Assembly: GCA_946408655.1 (NCBI GenBank)
Contig: CAMJTE010000001.1
Coordinates: forward strand, 1 to 55,078
Direction: 5' to 3'
Source: an uncultured Bacillales bacterium
Lineage (GTDB): Bacteria; Bacillota_I; Bacilli_A; RF39; UBA660
DNA length: 55,078 bases
Below the pieces are notes generated by a model, which ran no database searches, was not told where the DNA came from, and worked only from the letters and a program-made list of their open reading frames with translations. Positions 5,809 to 45,651 of the stretch are shown one piece after another. A program made the translations under genes and the position numbers. Position 1 is the stretch's first letter. Each line of letters opens with the position of its first letter.

Positions 5809-6989
5809 CTCATTATTTGCAGAGAGTGCCTAATTAATGTATAATAATTGATATAGTTATACATTGATGAGCAACTGTGCAATTATGACGTGGTGGTCCT
5901 CTGCATAGTTGTTCATCAATGTAGAGAGGATCACCAAATATGAAAATTAGAAATAAAATTGATAACTCAAGGAGAAAAACTCCTTGGGATGATAATGCAT
6001 CACTTACTGCTACGCAAAAATTTATTAAAATAAAATATGAAGAAAATTATTGTTTTAAGCATCCCAATTTGTTATTAACAAAGGAATTTGAACTATTAAA
6101 CTCTATAAAAATAGATGAATGCCGAAGATGTGGAACTAAAAACATCAGAAAAAAAGGTTTCTCTAGAAATAATGTTCAAATGTATTACTGTAATGAATGT
6201 GAGCGACACTTTGAACCAACAACTAATACTATTTTTGAAGAGCACAAAATTTCAATAACGGAGTGGATAGAGTTTTTGCTTGACTTATTTAATTACGGAA
6301 GCACGTCATTAGTATCTAAGGTTAACAAGAATTGTATTAATACTTCCAGATATTGGTTAACGAAAACCTTCTTAGTATTAAAAGATTATCAGCAATCTAT
6401 TCTTTTAAAAGGCACAGTATATGTTGATGAATTTTACTATAAAGTTATACAAAGTAAAATTATAACTAAAGATGGTAAGCAACTTAGAGGATTATCGAAA
6501 AATCAATTTTGTATTGGTTTAGGCTATGATAAAGAAAATATTATTGCTATTCTTGAAGGTGTTGGAAAACCAAGCGAAAATAAAACAAAATTAGCTTTTA
6601 TAGATCATATAAAAACTAATTCAAAACTAATTCATGATGAAGAGAAAAGTCATAAAGTATTAATTGATGAACTTAATCTTACAGATGAATCATATAATTC
6701 TAATGATTTGAAAAAACTTGATGATAAAAATAATCCTTTACAACCAATAAATCATATTTGTGATTTATTAAGAAAGTTTTTAAACTCACATAGTGGATTT
6801 GATAGAGACAATTTACAAGATTATCTTAATCTATTCTGTTTTATGCATAACGGTTATAAAAGTAATTTGGAAAGAATTGATAAACTATTGAATATAGCTT
6901 TAAATAAAAAAGTAAGGTTAAAATATCGTGAAATGTTTAAAAAACGTGATAATGATTGAGGTTGTCAGGCACTTTCTGCAAATAATGAG
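5809..6989 (+). mobile_element. IS1595-family insertion sequence
   Basis: 22-bp terminal inverted repeats (5809-5830 ctcattatttgcagagagtgcc; 6968-6989 is its reverse complement with 1 mismatch). Flanked by a perfect 12-bp direct repeat tttattgtaaaa (5797-5808 and 6990-7001). Single transposase ORF. Confidence 0.8.
5940..6959 (+). CDS. IS1595-family DDE transposase with N-terminal zinc ribbon
   Basis: 339 aa. CRRCG..x17..CNECERHF zinc ribbon followed by TNTIFEEHKISITEW, then a DDE-type core (VYVDEFYY). RBS GAGAGGA upstream. Confidence 0.8.
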   Translation: MKIRNKIDNSRRKTPWDDNASLTATQKFIKIKYEENYCFKHPNLLLTKEFELLNSIKIDECRRCGTKNIRKKGFSRNNVQMYYCNECERHFEPTTNTIFEEHKISITEWIEFLLDLFNYGSTSLVSKVNKNCINTSRYWLTKTFLVLKDYQQSILLKGTVYVDEFYYKVIQSKIITKDGKQLRGLSKNQFCIGLGYDKENIIAILEGVGKPSENKTKLAFIDHIKTNSKLIHDEEKSHKVLIDELNLTDESYNSNDLKKLDDKNNPLQPINHICDLLRKFLNSHSGFDRDNLQDYLNLFCFMHNGYKSNLERIDKLLNIALNKKVRLKYREMFKKRDND

Positions 6990-7109
6990 TTTATTGTAAA
7001 AGTTCTGTTCAATCTTTTGACTGATGATGTTATAAACAAGTTGTATTACCTATAAAACAATGTATTGATATATCTACTTATCAGTAATTTGCTTGAACAC
7101 AGCCATTGT

Positions 7110-7151
7110 AAAAAAAAGATTTACATATAGAAATTAACCTATATGTAAATC
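7110..7151 (-). terminator. Rho-independent terminator after the coupling-protein gene
   Basis: Perfect 13-bp stem (gatttacatatag / ctatatgtaaatc), 8-nt loop, followed on the minus strand by T8. Confidence 0.85.
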
Positions 7152-7156
7152 CTTTA

Positions 7157-9304
7157 TCACTCACTAAAGAAGTCATCAAAGAATTGATCATCTGTTACTC
7201 CACCATTCTGTTTTTCTTTTGTACTAGACTTATCAGGAGTAATAACTTCTTCGATATCAGCATCAATAACTTTTTTAGAATCATCCACACTCTTTTTTTC
7301 GTCAGATTTATTCTCAGATTTTTGTTCTTGTTCTTTTCTTTCTTCTTCTTCAAGTTCGGCAATTTTAGCATCTATTCTTTTTACCATTTCATCAATATTA
7401 AATGAATTATTATTAGGTTTTGATGATCCACCACCAAAAGGATTTGCACCCATTCCACCTAGTCCTGAAGGCATTCCATTCATTCCAGGAAGTCCAGGTA
7501 ATCCTGGTAGTCCTCCCGGCATCCCACCAAATCCACCAAGTGGTAATCCTCCACCAGTAGGATTAGGGCCACCGGAACCTAACATATTATTTATTTTATC
7601 TTCTCTTTTCTTTTCTACAAAACCTTTTAAATCAAAAACCTTCACAGGTAATTTTTCATGAACAGGATAAGTTGCCTTAGGATAATTAACTCCCCAATCC
7701 ATCTTAAAATTAGGTGTTAGTTTTGTTTTAAATGGCATCATACGAATTCTAAGAACAATAGTTTCCCACATTTTCATACGTTGTAAGTCACTTACAGTAA
7801 CTAACGGAGTTGATGAGGTTTTCTCTTTTTCCTTAGATTTAACTTCACCACACATTTTACTAATCTCTTCAAGTGCAGAAAGTTCAGAACTAATTAAATA
7901 AATAATATTACCACAGTTACCTTTTATAGTCTCTCCATTTTCTTTACCATAAACTTCATAAAGCTGAGCAAAGTTCTGAATAATAAAAGTAAATCTAATA
8001 TTTCTTGAACGAGCTGCAGTAACCATTGTAGTAACATCTTTTAAAGGAGGCATATTAGCAAACTCATCTAGAATAAAGTTAGTTCTATGAGGTAATTTTC
8101 CTCCACTTTCTTGTGCAACAGAAATCAACGTTTCATAACATTGCTTTAGAAATATTGTAACTAATGCATGATAAGTTTTCTTTTCATCTTGAATAACTAT
8201 AAATACAGCTGTTTTCTTTCTACCAATATCACGCATATCGAAGTCATTATGCGCAAGCATTTCAGATAAGTTTTCACGAGAAGCAAACAACTTTATTTTT
8301 TGTTTAAATACTGATAGTATACTTCCTCTAGTTTCATTCGGAGCCATAATTGTTGAAGATGCATTAACATATGCAGGACTAGCAGGATCTTTATAACTAA
8401 AATATTCATTAACATACTTAGTATTACCTATTTTTTCTTCACCAACAGTAGTCATCAAGTTAATACTATTTAAATTTATTTCATCTTCCGCGGCATCTTC
8501 AAACAATCCTAATGATAAACCAGCAAAATAGTCTGCAGAAGTGTTTTCCCAGAATGGATCTTGCCCTTTAGATGATTCATCATAAAGTATATTTTTAGCA
8601 AGGTCATCTAATAACTCATTAGCCTTATCTTGATTACCATTTTGATAAAACGAATATGGTAAACTCATCGGATTCCAAGAATTACCTTGTTGTGGGTCAC
8701 GAAAGTTTAAAAGAACTATGTTATAACCTAAGTCTCTTAACATCTCAGATGTATCTTCAAAAATTTCACCCTTTGGGTCTGTTATAATCATTGATTCATC
8801 ATGCTTACAAAGCAATTGTACCATAGGAAGTACAGTAGTCTGTGTTTTACCTGCACCAGTAGAACCAATAACTAGATTATGGTATCCTCCATCATCAACC
8901 CAAGCTTCCTTTTCATTCATTATGATAGGAATACCAGCAGCATCATTATGTTTAGCCTTAGGATCAACTTTTTTTAATTCCTCTTTCATCTCTTTATCTT
9001 TAGCCCAACGAGAATAGTTTTTTTCTTTTTTAGCACCCACTTCAATTCCAACGCCACTACTTCTTTCAAATATATATGATTTAACACTTATTAAACCAAT
9101 AATTATTCCAATAAAGAACCCTACAATGGTCATTGAAAACATAATTCCATTAGTAAATACTAAGAATATATTTGCAGTAAATGGTTCTTCCTCGACAAAT
9201 GCATTAATATTTACAACTAAAAGTTGTACAACAATAAGCCAAACAAAAGAAAAAATACAGAAAATCAATAAATCTTTAGGCTCGACTCTTAATCTTAGTT
9301 TCAT
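7157..9304 (-). CDS. Type IV coupling protein (VirD4/TraG/TcpA-like)
   Basis: 715 aa. Two N-terminal TM helices. Walker A GSTGAGKTQT, TDPKGE, Walker B-like NFILDEFANMPP. C-terminal Gly/Pro/Met-rich low-complexity segment and acidic-aromatic tail. GGAGG RBS. Confidence 0.85.
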   Translation of the reverse strand: MKLRLRVEPKDLLIFCIFSFVWLIVVQLLVVNINAFVEEEPFTANIFLVFTNGIMFSMTIVGFFIGIIIGLISVKSYIFERSSGVGIEVGAKKEKNYSRWAKDKEMKEELKKVDPKAKHNDAAGIPIIMNEKEAWVDDGGYHNLVIGSTGAGKTQTTVLPMVQLLCKHDESMIITDPKGEIFEDTSEMLRDLGYNIVLLNFRDPQQGNSWNPMSLPYSFYQNGNQDKANELLDDLAKNILYDESSKGQDPFWENTSADYFAGLSLGLFEDAAEDEINLNSINLMTTVGEEKIGNTKYVNEYFSYKDPASPAYVNASSTIMAPNETRGSILSVFKQKIKLFASRENLSEMLAHNDFDMRDIGRKKTAVFIVIQDEKKTYHALVTIFLKQCYETLISVAQESGGKLPHRTNFILDEFANMPPLKDVTTMVTAARSRNIRFTFIIQNFAQLYEVYGKENGETIKGNCGNIIYLISSELSALEEISKMCGEVKSKEKEKTSSTPLVTVSDLQRMKMWETIVLRIRMMPFKTKLTPNFKMDWGVNYPKATYPVHEKLPVKVFDLKGFVEKKREDKINNMLGSGGPNPTGGGLPLGGFGGMPGGLPGLPGLPGMNGMPSGLGGMGANPFGGGSSKPNNNSFNIDEMVKRIDAKIAELEEEERKEQEQKSENKSDEKKSVDDSKKVIDADIEEVITPDKSSTKEKQNGGVTDDQFFDDFFSE

Positions 9305-41173: not shown

Positions 41174-41279
41174 AATAGGATGATATTTTTTTACATTATT
41201 TACTAAATATCACTTGCGATATAAACATTCGTTTGTTATAATATATATGTTCGTTTGTAAATGTGGAGGTAGAGGTAAT

Positions 41280-42311
41280 ATGAAAAACGAAGTAATCGAA
41301 AAAAATAATTCAGAATTAGTTATTTATGAATCCAAAGAAGGTGATATTAAATTAGATGTTAATCTTGAAAATGAAACAGTATGGTTATCTTTAGAACAAA
41401 TGTCAAGGTTATTTGGTAGAGATAAATCAGTTATTTCAAGACATATAAAACATGTATTTGATGAAGGAGAATTAGAAAGAGAAAAGGTTGTTGCAAATTT
41501 TGCAACAACCACTAAACACGGCGCAATTCAAGGAAAAAAACAAACTCATTTTGTTGATTATTATAACTTAGATGTAGTAATAAGCGTGGGATATCGTGTT
41601 AAATCATTAGAAGGTGTTCGTTTTAGAAAATGGGCGACAGAAAGAATTAAGGAATATATTATCAAAGGATATACTATGGATGATGAAAGGCTTAAAAATC
41701 TTGGCGGAGGAAAATATTTCTATGAACTATTAAACCGTATAAAAGATATAAGATCATCAGAAAAAGTATTATATAGGCAAGTTCTTGATTTATATGCAAC
41801 TGCAATTGATTATAATCCTAAAGCCGAAGAAACTATAAAATTCTTTAAAATAGTCCAAAATAAATTTCATTATGCTGCTCATGGTAATACAGCTGCCGAA
41901 GTTATATATAATAGAGTAGATTCAAACAAACTATTTATGGGACTAACTAGTTTTAAAGGAGAACTACCTAGTATAAATGATATTGAAATTGCTAAGAATT
42001 ATTTAACTGAAGAAGAATTAATAATGTTAAATAATCTAGTTTCAGGATATTTTGATTTTGCAGAATTTCAAGCAATGAAGCATAAACCTATGAGAATGAA
42101 AGATTATATTAATCAATTAGATAAAATACTAAATTCTATTGATGCCAAAGTATTAAAAAACTCAGGAAGCATTAGTCATAAAGATGCAATTGATAAAGCA
42201 AAAATAGAGTATAAAAAATATCAGGTTAAAGAATTAAGTCCTATAGAAAAAGAGTATTTAAATTCTATTAACAAGATAAATGAAATTGCAAAAAGCTTAG
42301 ATAATAAATAA
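41280..42311 (+). CDS. RhuM-family protein
   Basis: Start MKNEVIEK at 41280, after GGAGGTAGAGG. Sequence is typical of RhuM-like proteins (WLSLEQMSRLFGRDKSVISRHIKHVF, VISVGYRVKS..GVRFRKWAT). Confidence 0.7.
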   Translation: MKNEVIEKNNSELVIYESKEGDIKLDVNLENETVWLSLEQMSRLFGRDKSVISRHIKHVFDEGELEREKVVANFATTTKHGAIQGKKQTHFVDYYNLDVVISVGYRVKSLEGVRFRKWATERIKEYIIKGYTMDDERLKNLGGGKYFYELLNRIKDIRSSEKVLYRQVLDLYATAIDYNPKAEETIKFFKIVQNKFHYAAHGNTAAEVIYNRVDSNKLFMGLTSFKGELPSINDIEIAKNYLTEEELIMLNNLVSGYFDFAEFQAMKHKPMRMKDYINQLDKILNSIDAKVLKNSGSISHKDAIDKAKIEYKKYQVKELSPIEKEYLNSINKINEIAKSLDNK

Positions 42312-43616: not shown

Positions 43617-44393
43617 TTACTGAATAATTAATTCTTGATCTATACTTAACAAATTACTAGTTAAATTGTTAAGTTTTTTTATTGTATCAACAGTGGTATT
43701 AAATGCATTGGCAATAGAATATAGAGTATCTCCTATTTTAACAATATATTTATTAATAGTAGAATCTTTTAATTTAAGTCTTTGACCTATACTTAATATA
43801 TCACTTGTAAGATTATTTATTTCTTTCAATCTATCAACAGTTATATTGTTATTTCTAGCTATAGAATATAAAGTATCTCCTGATTTAACAATGTAGGTAT
43901 CTGTTTCAGTTGGTACAAATAAATCAGTTCCTACTTTTAATAGATTAGTTGATAAATTGTTTAATCTTTTTATCTCATTCACTGTTGTATTAAACTTTTT
44001 AGCAATACTCCATAATGTATCACCACTAACTACTTTATACGTACCAGAATTATTAGTTGGAGATTCATTATTATTTTTAGTATATGGAATATTTAGATAC
44101 TCTGCAATAGACTTAACAACTGCTTCAGCATAATCTGGCCAATTATTCTTTAATTGCTTAACATCATCTATTTTACTATCTAAAAACCCATATTCAACAA
44201 TTATAGCATCAGTATTCCCTGTATTTCTTAACATATAATAGTAATCTTTAGTTTGAGCAGATGGTAATCTTCTTTGATATGCTCTTCTTATATTTTGGCC
44301 TTCATCTTTTAAGTTATTTAGTATTAGATTAGGAAGTTCATCTGTTCCACGTAGAGCATATATTACTTCCGCTCCATCCCCACCTGCCGATAG
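43617..44393 (-). pseudogene. 3' fragment of an N-acetylmuramoyl-L-alanine amidase (Amidase_3) gene with three LysM repeats, truncated by element insertion
   Basis: The frame stays open upstream of the track ORF as far as the in-frame TGA at 44394-44396 (..LSAGGDGAEVIYALRGTD..YYYMLRNTG..AIIVEYGFLD). The N-terminal third of the amidase domain is absent. Three YxVxxGDTLxSIA LysM units. Confidence 0.7.
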
Positions 44394-44708
44394 TCAATGT
44401 GTAACTATTTTTAAAGTGTGACAAAATGTCACGTTTTTAATCTATTCAGTCGGTAACAAATTGTAACCAACTGAGTATTTAATTGTCCGAAAAAATCGGA
44501 CATTACGTTATTTTTTACTATTTTGGTGTAAACACCAAAATAGTAAATTTACTTTGTTTTCAAAGTTAATATTATCTTAGAGTTCAATTTCAATTGTCTA
44601 GTATTCCTAGACAATTGAAAAAATCCTTCTTTAATTTATTTTTTAATCAATTATACAGATTACTATCATTAACAAAAATACTTTTACATATTATTAGTAA
44701 CTTTAAAT

Positions 44709-45536
44709 TTAATTATTTCCAATCTTTTGAAGTTCTTCTTTCTCTAATTCTTTAATAGACTTTTCAGGAGTTGGTAATGTTTCAGGCATATTACCGCCAA
44801 GTTCTTCAATAGCCTTTCTCACTGTTTTTCCAACATTATAATGAGTTAAGCAAGCATCATCTTCATTATCAATATTATCTTTTTTTAATTTAGCTTCTGT
44901 TTGTGTAATACGGAATAAATTAGCACCCAATTCCTCACTACCCATATAATCAAGAATATCTTCGTTTTCTTTTATATTCTTACGTTTTGCAATTTGCTTT
45001 GCTGTTTCACCATTATATAGTCCTTTATATCCATAATTATTAAATTTACCAAAATTTTCTACCCCAGCTTCTCTTGCAGTTTTAAACAAATATTTATTTT
45101 TATTATTAACAAGAATTCTAGTATATAATCTTTTTTCATCTTCTGATAATCTTGAATATTCTAATTCAGTAATTTCCTGTTTTCTAGTTTGTACTGCAAA
45201 ATATGTTTGTCCAAGAGCTACTGATTTTTTTCTAGGATTTGCATTTTGAACTACTAAATAACAAGCATATCTAGATAAATGATAGTCAATTACATTTTGA
45301 ATATTACCTTTACCACCTACTATCGGTTTCCTGAATTCAGGAAAGTGATCTAAAACATTGTTATTACTAGTTTCACAAGCAATCATTGCTCTTTTTATAA
45401 CTTTATGAAAATTTTCCCACTTACTATATTCAAGTAGTGGCATTAACTCTCTTGCTTCCCAGTATTCATTTCCTAATTCATCTATATGTTTTATATTTTC
45501 AAAAGTCTTTTCTGTATATTCTTCTATATTACTCAT
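44709..45536 (-). CDS. dinD: DNA damage-inducible protein D-like
   Basis: 275 aa. The pattern GNEYWEARELMPLLEYSKWENF...DYHLSRYACYLVVQNANPRK matches DinD-family proteins. Confidence 0.7.
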   Translation of the reverse strand: MSNIEEYTEKTFENIKHIDELGNEYWEARELMPLLEYSKWENFHKVIKRAMIACETSNNNVLDHFPEFRKPIVGGKGNIQNVIDYHLSRYACYLVVQNANPRKKSVALGQTYFAVQTRKQEITELEYSRLSEDEKRLYTRILVNNKNKYLFKTAREAGVENFGKFNNYGYKGLYNGETAKQIAKRKNIKENEDILDYMGSEELGANLFRITQTEAKLKKDNIDNEDDACLTHYNVGKTVRKAIEELGGNMPETLPTPEKSIKELEKEELQKIGNN

Positions 45537-45651
45537 TTATTTAACCTCCTTTCCTGTATATATTATATCAAACATTTGTTCTGACTGCAACAGTTGTATA
45601 AGTAGTTTATCAATTTTTTATGTACACCTTGTCGAAAGTTGCGACAAAGTT

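Follow-up and report, generated by a model that had tools for sequence, protein, structure and literature searches.

A serine recombinase element carrying defence genes splits a predicted sporulation amidase gene in uncultured RF39 bacteria

The DNA analysed here, referred to as the window, is a 55,078-nucleotide stretch that makes up the entire contig C1 (CAMJTE010000001.1) of a metagenome-derived genome of an uncultured RF39 bacterium (GCA_946408655.1, here G000; 1.44 Mb in 108 contigs, 84% complete, 26% GC). Within it, the gene for a CwlC-like N-acetylmuramoyl-L-alanine amidase is interrupted in its catalytic domain by an element of at least 10.7 kb, which extends from position 44385 to beyond 55078 and of which the window holds the right end (attR). 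Site-specific insertion of this element by its large serine recombinase (LSR) is, to judge from the sequences at the junctions, close to certain. It is likely that the element, with its defence genes, was placed by its own recombinase in a mother-cell amidase gene and is excised again in the mother cell.

The truncated amidase gene

On the minus strand of the window a reading frame is open from the stop codon at 43617–43619 to 44393, reading ..LSAGGDGAEVIYALRG.., with an in-frame TGA (44394–44396) as its upstream limit, as a preliminary description of this DNA had reported. The part belonging to the amidase (43617–44382, minus strand) is the 3' fragment of the gene, comprising the C-terminal half of an Amidase_3 domain and three LysM repeats; in Pfam it matches the three repeats and positions 85–173 of the 174 in the Amidase_3 profile, the latter with 20.6 bits, below the cut-off of 27. 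The fragment does not contain a complete Amidase_3 catalytic domain with its zinc ligands. The preliminary description was right that the N-terminal part of the domain is missing, but the missing part is a half and not a third.

The locus was compared with those of genomes G002 (same genus, with an intact gene), G003 and G004, and with locus L047. Intact orthologues (the 345-amino-acid (aa) protein of G002 and the joined genes of G004 and L047) begin directly with M..IVIDAGHGG and have no signal peptide, contrary to the earlier proposal that a signal peptide was lost with the N-terminus. The zinc ligands, which we take from the general Amidase_3 pattern to be H15, E29 and H86 (G002 numbering), all lie in the absent 5' half, so that the window fragment would be catalytically dead. 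Its 258 codons are free of any stop or frameshift and 93% identical to residues 90–345 of the intact G002 gene, whose product aligns with solved amidases over residues 7–189. The break falls inside the codons for the conserved motif NAGG/GDGAE of the Amidase_3/LysM gene (break at the slash).

Membership of the CwlD family was considered for the amidase and rejected, the best NCBIfam catalytic match, CwlD, reaching only 85 bits against a cut-off of 221. The other Amidase_3 gene of G000 found with PF01520 is a separate 229-aa gene on contig C5, CwlD-like by eye.

Insertion site and restoration of the gene

In G002, the intact 345-aa amidase gene (93% identical; start MIIMNDKRIVIDAGHGG) shares its downstream neighbours with the window (122-aa, 270-aa and RhuM genes), and no close homologue of the window recombinase was found in that genome; by its sequence, the locus is an empty site. 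The comparison with a strain carrying an intact gene, proposed in the preliminary description, is provided by this allele, which occupies the same chromosomal place.

Both amidase halves lie on one contig in G004, around an element of 16,865 bp whose homologous recombinase adjoins the 3' half, and likewise in L047, where the element between them measures 4,244 bp. Alignment of these junctions shows GG flanked by imperfect inverted arms of 21 bp (GTTACACAyTGAyyATCrsCA at one side, its complement at the other). The reconstructed attP has the form arm-GG-arm and is 44 bp long. When the halves are joined in silico at the GG, uninterrupted open reading frames (ORFs) of 346 aa (G004) and 403 aa (L047) result, both reading ..NHINAGGGDGAEVIYALR.. 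with no extra bases. The two relatives therefore possess what is expected of LSR attachment sites, namely short sites in which imperfect inverted arms flank a non-palindromic central dinucleotide, and a target that is not duplicated; the window holds the attR half only. With the empty site, the split genes and the joined frames in hand, the sequences bear out the earlier view of a serine recombinase element inserted in a coding gene that precise excision can restore.

In the window, the crossover dinucleotide GG of the attR core lies at 44383–44384 (minus strand), as inferred from the symmetry of attP in G004 and L047 and from the overlap in identity among attL, attR and attB. It is bordered at 44385–44405 (minus strand) by the right-end arm of the element, the attP-derived half-site GTTACACATTGACTATCGGCA, from which the in-frame TGA at 44394–44396 derives. 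The core had earlier been placed within about 44385–44400; the arm is indeed found there, but the dinucleotide itself lies one to two bases outside.

The same arrangement recurs widely. In a sample of 120 genera of the host family, 26 have a homologue of the recombinase (51–91% identity). With one genome scanned per species, 101 relatives of the recombinase were found, and 80 loci were kept; these come from uncultured gut Bacilli, "Mollicutes"/"Tenericutes" bins and scaffolds of CAG:433, CAG:762, CAG:472 and CAG:582, that is, of the RF39 type. At 53 of the 80 loci, the arm and GG stand directly before an in-frame amidase 3' fragment, and most of these fragments run for 250–430 codons to a natural stop. 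The opposite junction was sought in metagenome contigs with the left arm alone: 56 contigs were found, 46 of which have the attL junction ..SNH(I/L)NAG, followed by GG and the arm, the remaining 10 being other junctions. Because the break point is identical at both junctions in so many loci and contigs, the truncation is not due to chance. Seven loci have the arm abutting other DNA, and these are probably tandem elements; in G003, for example, 11.8 kb of other DNA lies between the amidase 5' half and the left arm.

Some loci depart from this pattern in other ways. In L066 (~7810–8462) and L105 (~6878–7530), GGATGAGGTTGTATAG.. follows the right arm and GG, and ~100 bp on there is an amidase gene that is intact and has a sigmaK-type box of its own; the element may here occupy a secondary site, or bring or spare a full copy of the gene. 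The amidase of L026 (G003:C4, 4770–7960) contains a second serine recombinase element of 3.2 kb within its first LysM repeat, after ..YIVKSGDT, with genes for a 521-aa recombinase and a 314-aa membrane protein. A 126–128-codon truncation is common to L026, L070, L078, L086 and L090.

The recombinase and its small upstream ORF

The 548-aa LSR that the preliminary description placed about 1.2 kb into the element is encoded at 45652–47298, on the same (minus) strand as the amidase and 1.26 kb away from it, with its ORF starting at the ATG at 47298. It contains the Pfam domains Resolvase (PF00239, residues 38–189), Recombinase (PF07508, 213–331) and Zn_ribbon_recom (PF13408, 344–404), the domain set of an LSR, and in PHROGs it matches the phrog_95 integrase (E = 6e-98).

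Directly upstream of the recombinase in about 70 of the 80 loci is a 30-aa ORF, MFNIxETFKxDSPxF..L...IKS.., with a strong ribosome-binding site. Its third codon positions are twice as variable as positions 1 and 2, and no known family in PHROGs matched it. In the window this conserved ORF is 31 aa long (MFNIKETFKKDNNSTINDLVIGYIKCVLIKS; 47308–47403, minus strand). It is a candidate recombination directionality factor.

A box, CATA(A/C/G)A(A/C/T)T, precedes the small ORF across the recombinase family, with an A/T-rich ..ATA.. element 14 nt upstream; the corresponding site in the window, AAATATT-N14-CATAGAAT, lies at 47421–47449 (minus strand). As a putative promoter, the box fits the sigmaE consensus of Bacillus subtilis. 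A genome-wide scan with its pattern gave 13 matches, among them spoIVA and yabP-, spoVID- and gerQ-like genes (the last three named by eye).

Most relatives have a TGnTATAAT box ahead of the recombinase, whose TTG start is surrounded by a 9-bp inverted repeat. The window recombinase ORF starts 11 nt past the stop of the small ORF, and the gene may be coupled to the small ORF, or impaired.

The 9-bp repeat is perfect in most relatives (L028–L107). Located ~60 nt ahead of the recombinase start, it has the form GTTATACAA..(17 nt including the ribosome-binding site)..TTGTATAAC and so encloses both this site and the TTG start of the recombinase. In sequence it is similar to the outer portion of the att arms (GTTACACAA), and it could form a hairpin masking the ribosome-binding site, or serve as a site of autoregulation.

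Sporulation genes of the host and the predicted amidase promoter

RF39 has been predicted to sporulate (PMC10868615). G000 encodes Spo0A, SpoIVA (split, as described below) and a sigmaK/E-like sigma factor (297.5 bits), together with genes that resemble gerE, cotE, spoVIF and yabP by eye; no small acid-soluble spore protein was found in this 84% complete genome.

Of 12 amidase orthologues, about 10 have the pattern AC-N16-CATAnnnTA 5–8 nt ahead of their ribosome-binding site, although these genes are only 50–90% identical and their intergenic DNA is otherwise unrelated; the split genes of G004 and L047 are represented in the set by their 5' halves. The chance of such a match is 0.25% per 40-nt window in G000. 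The pattern precedes genes in seven cases, four of which are spoVIF-, cotE-, gerE-like and Tyr/Gly-rich coat-like genes (named by eye). The amidase promoter is accordingly of a predicted sigmaK type by comparison with the Bacillus subtilis consensus. This promoter, a CwlC-like layout and the lack of a signal peptide suggest that the amidase is a late mother-cell sporulation gene, and its product may have a role in mother-cell lysis.

CwlC of Bacillus subtilis is a late mother-cell lysis amidase (PMC517825). The two are likened by layout: both begin with an Amidase_3 domain that has no signal peptide ahead of it, end in wall-binding repeats and have a late mother-cell promoter (in our case the predicted sigmaK-type one). 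The repeats are LysM here and SPOR-like in CwlC, and a shared function would follow from this layout by inference only.

Cargo of the element

All annotated genes from 44709 to 54634 lie on the minus strand. Between the right arm and the recombinase is a gene for a Bro-N/DinD-like protein (PADLOC PDC-S13; 44709–45536), also present in the 4.2-kb minimal element of L047. Beyond the small ORF and its promoter-like site is a gene for an HTH_36 protein (47450–47953), which resembles the N-terminus of phage replication initiators and is kept with the recombinase in G003 and G004. Three genes of defence cargo follow, encoding an Mrr-nuclease/nSTAND3 NTPase (PADLOC PDC-S73; 48109–50487), an OLD-like ATPase-TOPRIM protein (50414–51607) and a GmrSD_N and HNH endonuclease (PADLOC REase_II; 51678–52871), and then an adenine methyltransferase of the EcoRI methylase family (Pfam and PADLOC; 52852–53973) and a T5orf172 domain protein (PADLOC PDC-S57; 53978–54634). 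With PDC-S13, PDC-S73, the OLD-like ATPase, REase_II, MTase_II and PDC-S57 as neighbours, the element has the adjoining defence-model genes of a defence island. The remaining DNA to the contig end (54635–55078) contains an 89-aa ORF on the plus strand (54790–55059) with no family match, and attL is not reached.

No capsid, tail, terminase or lysis genes were found among the ORFs at 44709–54634 with Pfam and PADLOC (and, for three ORFs, PHROGs), nor were any found in the whole 16.9-kb element of G004. The cargo of the latter consists of a type I restriction–modification system, Fic, AbiEi and an OLD-like ATPase beside a UvrD-type helicase, a pair that is Gabija-like by our reading. Both the recombinase module and the methylase block of the window recur in G003. 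Homology to G003 ends at 54805, and the last 273 bp of the window match neither G003 nor G004; an estimate of the left end from G003 (~0.5 kb past the contig) was dropped because this homology stops there.

The interval that separates the right arm from the Bro-N-like gene (44406–44700) holds four short hairpins in a row, tactattttggtgtttacaccaaaatagta and gtgacattttgtcac among them. The last of the four is conserved in L037, and the hairpins may be terminators insulating the element end. On the other side of the insertion, a RhuM-family gene (PADLOC PDC-S05; 41214–42311 in the window) lies two genes from the amidase in both G000 and G002, so defence-type genes occupy this neighbourhood even without the element.

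Other split genes beside serine recombinases in G000

G000 has at least 11 serine recombinase genes. The spoIVA gene is split: its 5' part is at C14:7998–8381 (TIGR02836 positions 1–123) and its 3' part at C12:22537–23697 (positions 121–492), directly downstream of a 532-aa serine recombinase (C12:23720–25318), and the junctions have GGGTATCAC / GTGATACCC inverted arms. A 60-aa ORF with a CATAGAAT box stands ahead of this recombinase.

Two elements appear to interrupt a gene for a spoVD-like penicillin-binding protein (recombinases C7:25838–27514 and C7:31080–32756; fragments C7:27453–27935 and C7:32806–33084, matching TIGR02214 409–548 and 542–634), whose 5' part was not located. This split may be one reason why spoVD has been called reduced or absent in RF39 (PMC10868615). 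A gene for a GerS/LolA-like lipoprotein (the GerS match is weak, 31 bits) is divided into a 5' part at C25:6000–6317 and a 3' part at C25:11372–12214, with a recombinase at C25:8772–10355; this element also holds a Bro-N-like gene and a 34-aa ORF with a CATATTCTA box.

The recombinases on C12 and C25 and that at C7:31080 each have a small ORF upstream with a similar pattern, ..ETF..DS....L.E....I... A CATA box precedes the small ORFs of C12 and C25, and C7:31080 has a near match only.

On contig C90 (1–3778), an intact 68-aa gerE-like gene (by eye) with a sigmaK-type box lies 1.7 kb from a serine recombinase gene (1–1859). In Bacillus cereus, gerE is the target of the gin element (PMC5595907).

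Proposed excision in the mother cell and alternative readings

The element has inserted by conservative site-specific recombination at the GG within the amidase codons. During sporulation, the sigmaE-type promoter would switch on the 30-aa protein in the mother cell, where it would serve as a directionality factor; the recombinase would join attL and attR, and the element would depart as a circle. The amidase ORF would in this way be rebuilt in time for sigmaK-driven expression, and the spore chromosome would retain the element. By these predicted regulatory signals, it is fairly likely that excision is tied to the mother cell.

A number of observations weigh against such programmed excision. 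To our knowledge, no RF39 organism has been cultured or observed sporulating, and the promoters are predicted from consensus sequences of Bacillus subtilis. The window recombinase has neither the TGnTATAAT box nor the TTG start that are usual among its relatives. Amidase codons 16–88 were not found in the 84% complete G000 assembly by tblastn or blastn with the G002 N-terminus and upstream DNA. The alignment of both junctions called for in the preliminary description succeeds in G004 and L047, where it defines attL, attR and the core, but not in G000, where a fuzzy arm search of the assembly gave the attR arm only. The 5' half may have been lost in G000, leaving this copy irreversible. A scan of metagenome contigs for arm-GG-arm gave no attP of an excised or tandem form, and none of the 56 left-arm contigs has the right arm on the other side.

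The pattern of spread adds to these points. The divergence of recombinase and amidase is uncorrelated (Mantel p = 0.22), and recombinases at least 98% identical occur in amidases just 45–62% identical. The insertions are therefore recent and horizontal, and intact halves alone are no proof of selection for reconstitution; long vertical inheritance of the split state, considered as such a proof, failed on the same ground. The lack of correlation likewise means that the element spreads horizontally while its target stays strict.

This horizontal movement is also what would be expected of a mobile defence island that uses the conserved motif as a landing site, knocks out the amidase at a tolerated cost and is excised for horizontal transfer only, without any link to sporulation. 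The cargo of defence genes with no sporulation genes among them and the lack of an excised form in the contigs scanned agree with that account, and the HTH_36 gene, in its likeness to replication initiators, hints at existence as a circle. It is nevertheless unlikely, given that the sigmaE-type box before the small ORF is kept across the recombinase family, that the same rule marks spoIVA and yabP-like genes in G000, and that the split amidase 5' halves retain their sigmaK-type promoter. Sister elements in G000, moreover, split spoIVA. In Bacillus subtilis, spoIVA is required for spore formation; with the sporulation set otherwise kept, permanent knock-outs are therefore hard to reconcile.

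Another possibility concerns the G000 copy alone, which could be a dead end: the 5' half and attL deleted or rearranged, the 3' fragment a stranded pseudogene and the recombinase possibly impaired. Besides the missing attL arm and codons 16–88 and the altered start region of the recombinase, a relic at C52:9519–10095 fits this account. It consists of codons 1–15 of the amidase and the region upstream of them, including the sigmaK-type box; at a different break point it is fused to an AAA_14/DUF4143 ATPase gene with an internal deletion, after which a phosphoesterase gene begins. In G004, however, the same 16-codon piece is present as an 83-bp duplication flanking an intact 409-aa ATPase gene, in addition to a complete 5' half adjoining attL. 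The relic thus goes back to a separate event and is uninformative on the 5' half of G000. The assembly is also incomplete and in 108 contigs, C1 ends inside the element, and the 258-codon 3' fragment is undamaged and 93% identical to the G002 gene. We regard a dead end as improbable, and the balance leans modestly towards this particular copy still being reversible. Coincidental proximity of the recombinase to an ordinary decayed pseudogene or an assembly artefact, for which the truncation itself and nothing further speaks, is refuted by the recurrence of one dinucleotide and one 21-bp arm across dozens of independent assemblies, and by an intact allele at the same place.

Relation to known elements and significance

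The element probably belongs with the sporulation-gene intervening elements. Precedents are skin (in sigK), SPbeta (spsM), vfbin (spoVFB), vrin (spoVR) and gin (gerE) (PMC4191935, PMC5595907, PMC5025042), and a yabG element of Clostridium botulinum as described in a paper citing it (PMC12286644). Like skin, SPbeta, vfbin, vrin and the yabG element, it is an LSR element that splits a mother-cell sporulation gene, here a predicted one; those are prophages or their remnants, whereas here there is cargo of the restriction and abortive-infection type, and genes for capsid, tail or terminase are absent from the 10.7 kb. A directionality factor under mother-cell sigma factors controls excision in SPbeta and Clostridioides difficile skin, where the recombinase can be constitutive (PMC5499854, PMC5025042). 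The TGnTATAAT box before the recombinase of relatives and the sigmaE-type box before the small ORF resemble that arrangement.

The closest parallels are with gin in gerE of Bacillus cereus ATCC10987, which encodes the recombinase GirC and the 42-aa GirX, a protein without a known motif (PMC5595907). Both are non-prophage LSR elements in a small late mother-cell gene (a predicted one here), with short att sites containing inverted repeats and a very small, motif-less partner (here a candidate), and the 4.2-kb element of L047 is about as minimal as gin. They differ in that the target is here an amidase and not gerE, the host is an uncultured RF39 bacterium, the candidate partner has 30–31 aa and a sequence unrelated as far as tested, and the window element, known from its sequence alone, carries at least 10 kb of defence genes.

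Insertion of LSR elements in coding genes is not confined to sporulation. Phages of the Listeria A118 family insert by an LSR within the coding gene comK, which precise excision restores, as excision would restore the amidase gene here. Those are full prophages, and their excision has no link to sporulation.

No published report of an amidase gene, spoIVA or spoVD as the target of an intervening element was found in a search outside which most subscription journals lay. New here are the target gene, the host lineage, the defence-gene cargo and the candidate partner protein. Gene-intervening sporulation elements are otherwise known from a handful of cultured Bacillus and Clostridium strains, and RF39-type bacteria, an abundant, uncultured lineage of the human and animal gut, form a new host group. 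The cargo consists of swappable defence islands, unlike that of prophage remnants. At 30 aa, the candidate partner would undercut GirX (42 aa), the smallest of the directionality factors compared here. The recombinase and its sites, a 44-bp attP and an attB in the NAGGGDGAE codons, with many natural variants, may serve as a tool. A caution for metagenome-assembled genomes (MAGs) also follows, as sporulation predictions from gene content can miss genes split by such elements.

Tentatively, and as a possibility that we hold a little short of evenly balanced, small-genome RF39 gut bacteria may have a multi-locus, programmed rearrangement of mother-cell DNA. Horizontally mobile elements in the cwlC-like amidase gene, in spoIVA, twice in the gene for the spoVD-like penicillin-binding protein and in the gerS-like gene, each with a tiny sigmaE-controlled partner of one loose family (..ETF..DS....L.E....I..), would all be removed in the terminal cell only. 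If this is true, the splitting of genes leads MAG surveys to under-call sporulation in RF39, as perhaps with spoVD, whose presence is reported to be reduced or lacking (PMC10868615). Circles freed at mother-cell lysis could be a route of horizontal spread, and sporulation genes would be safe parking sites for exchangeable defence islands.

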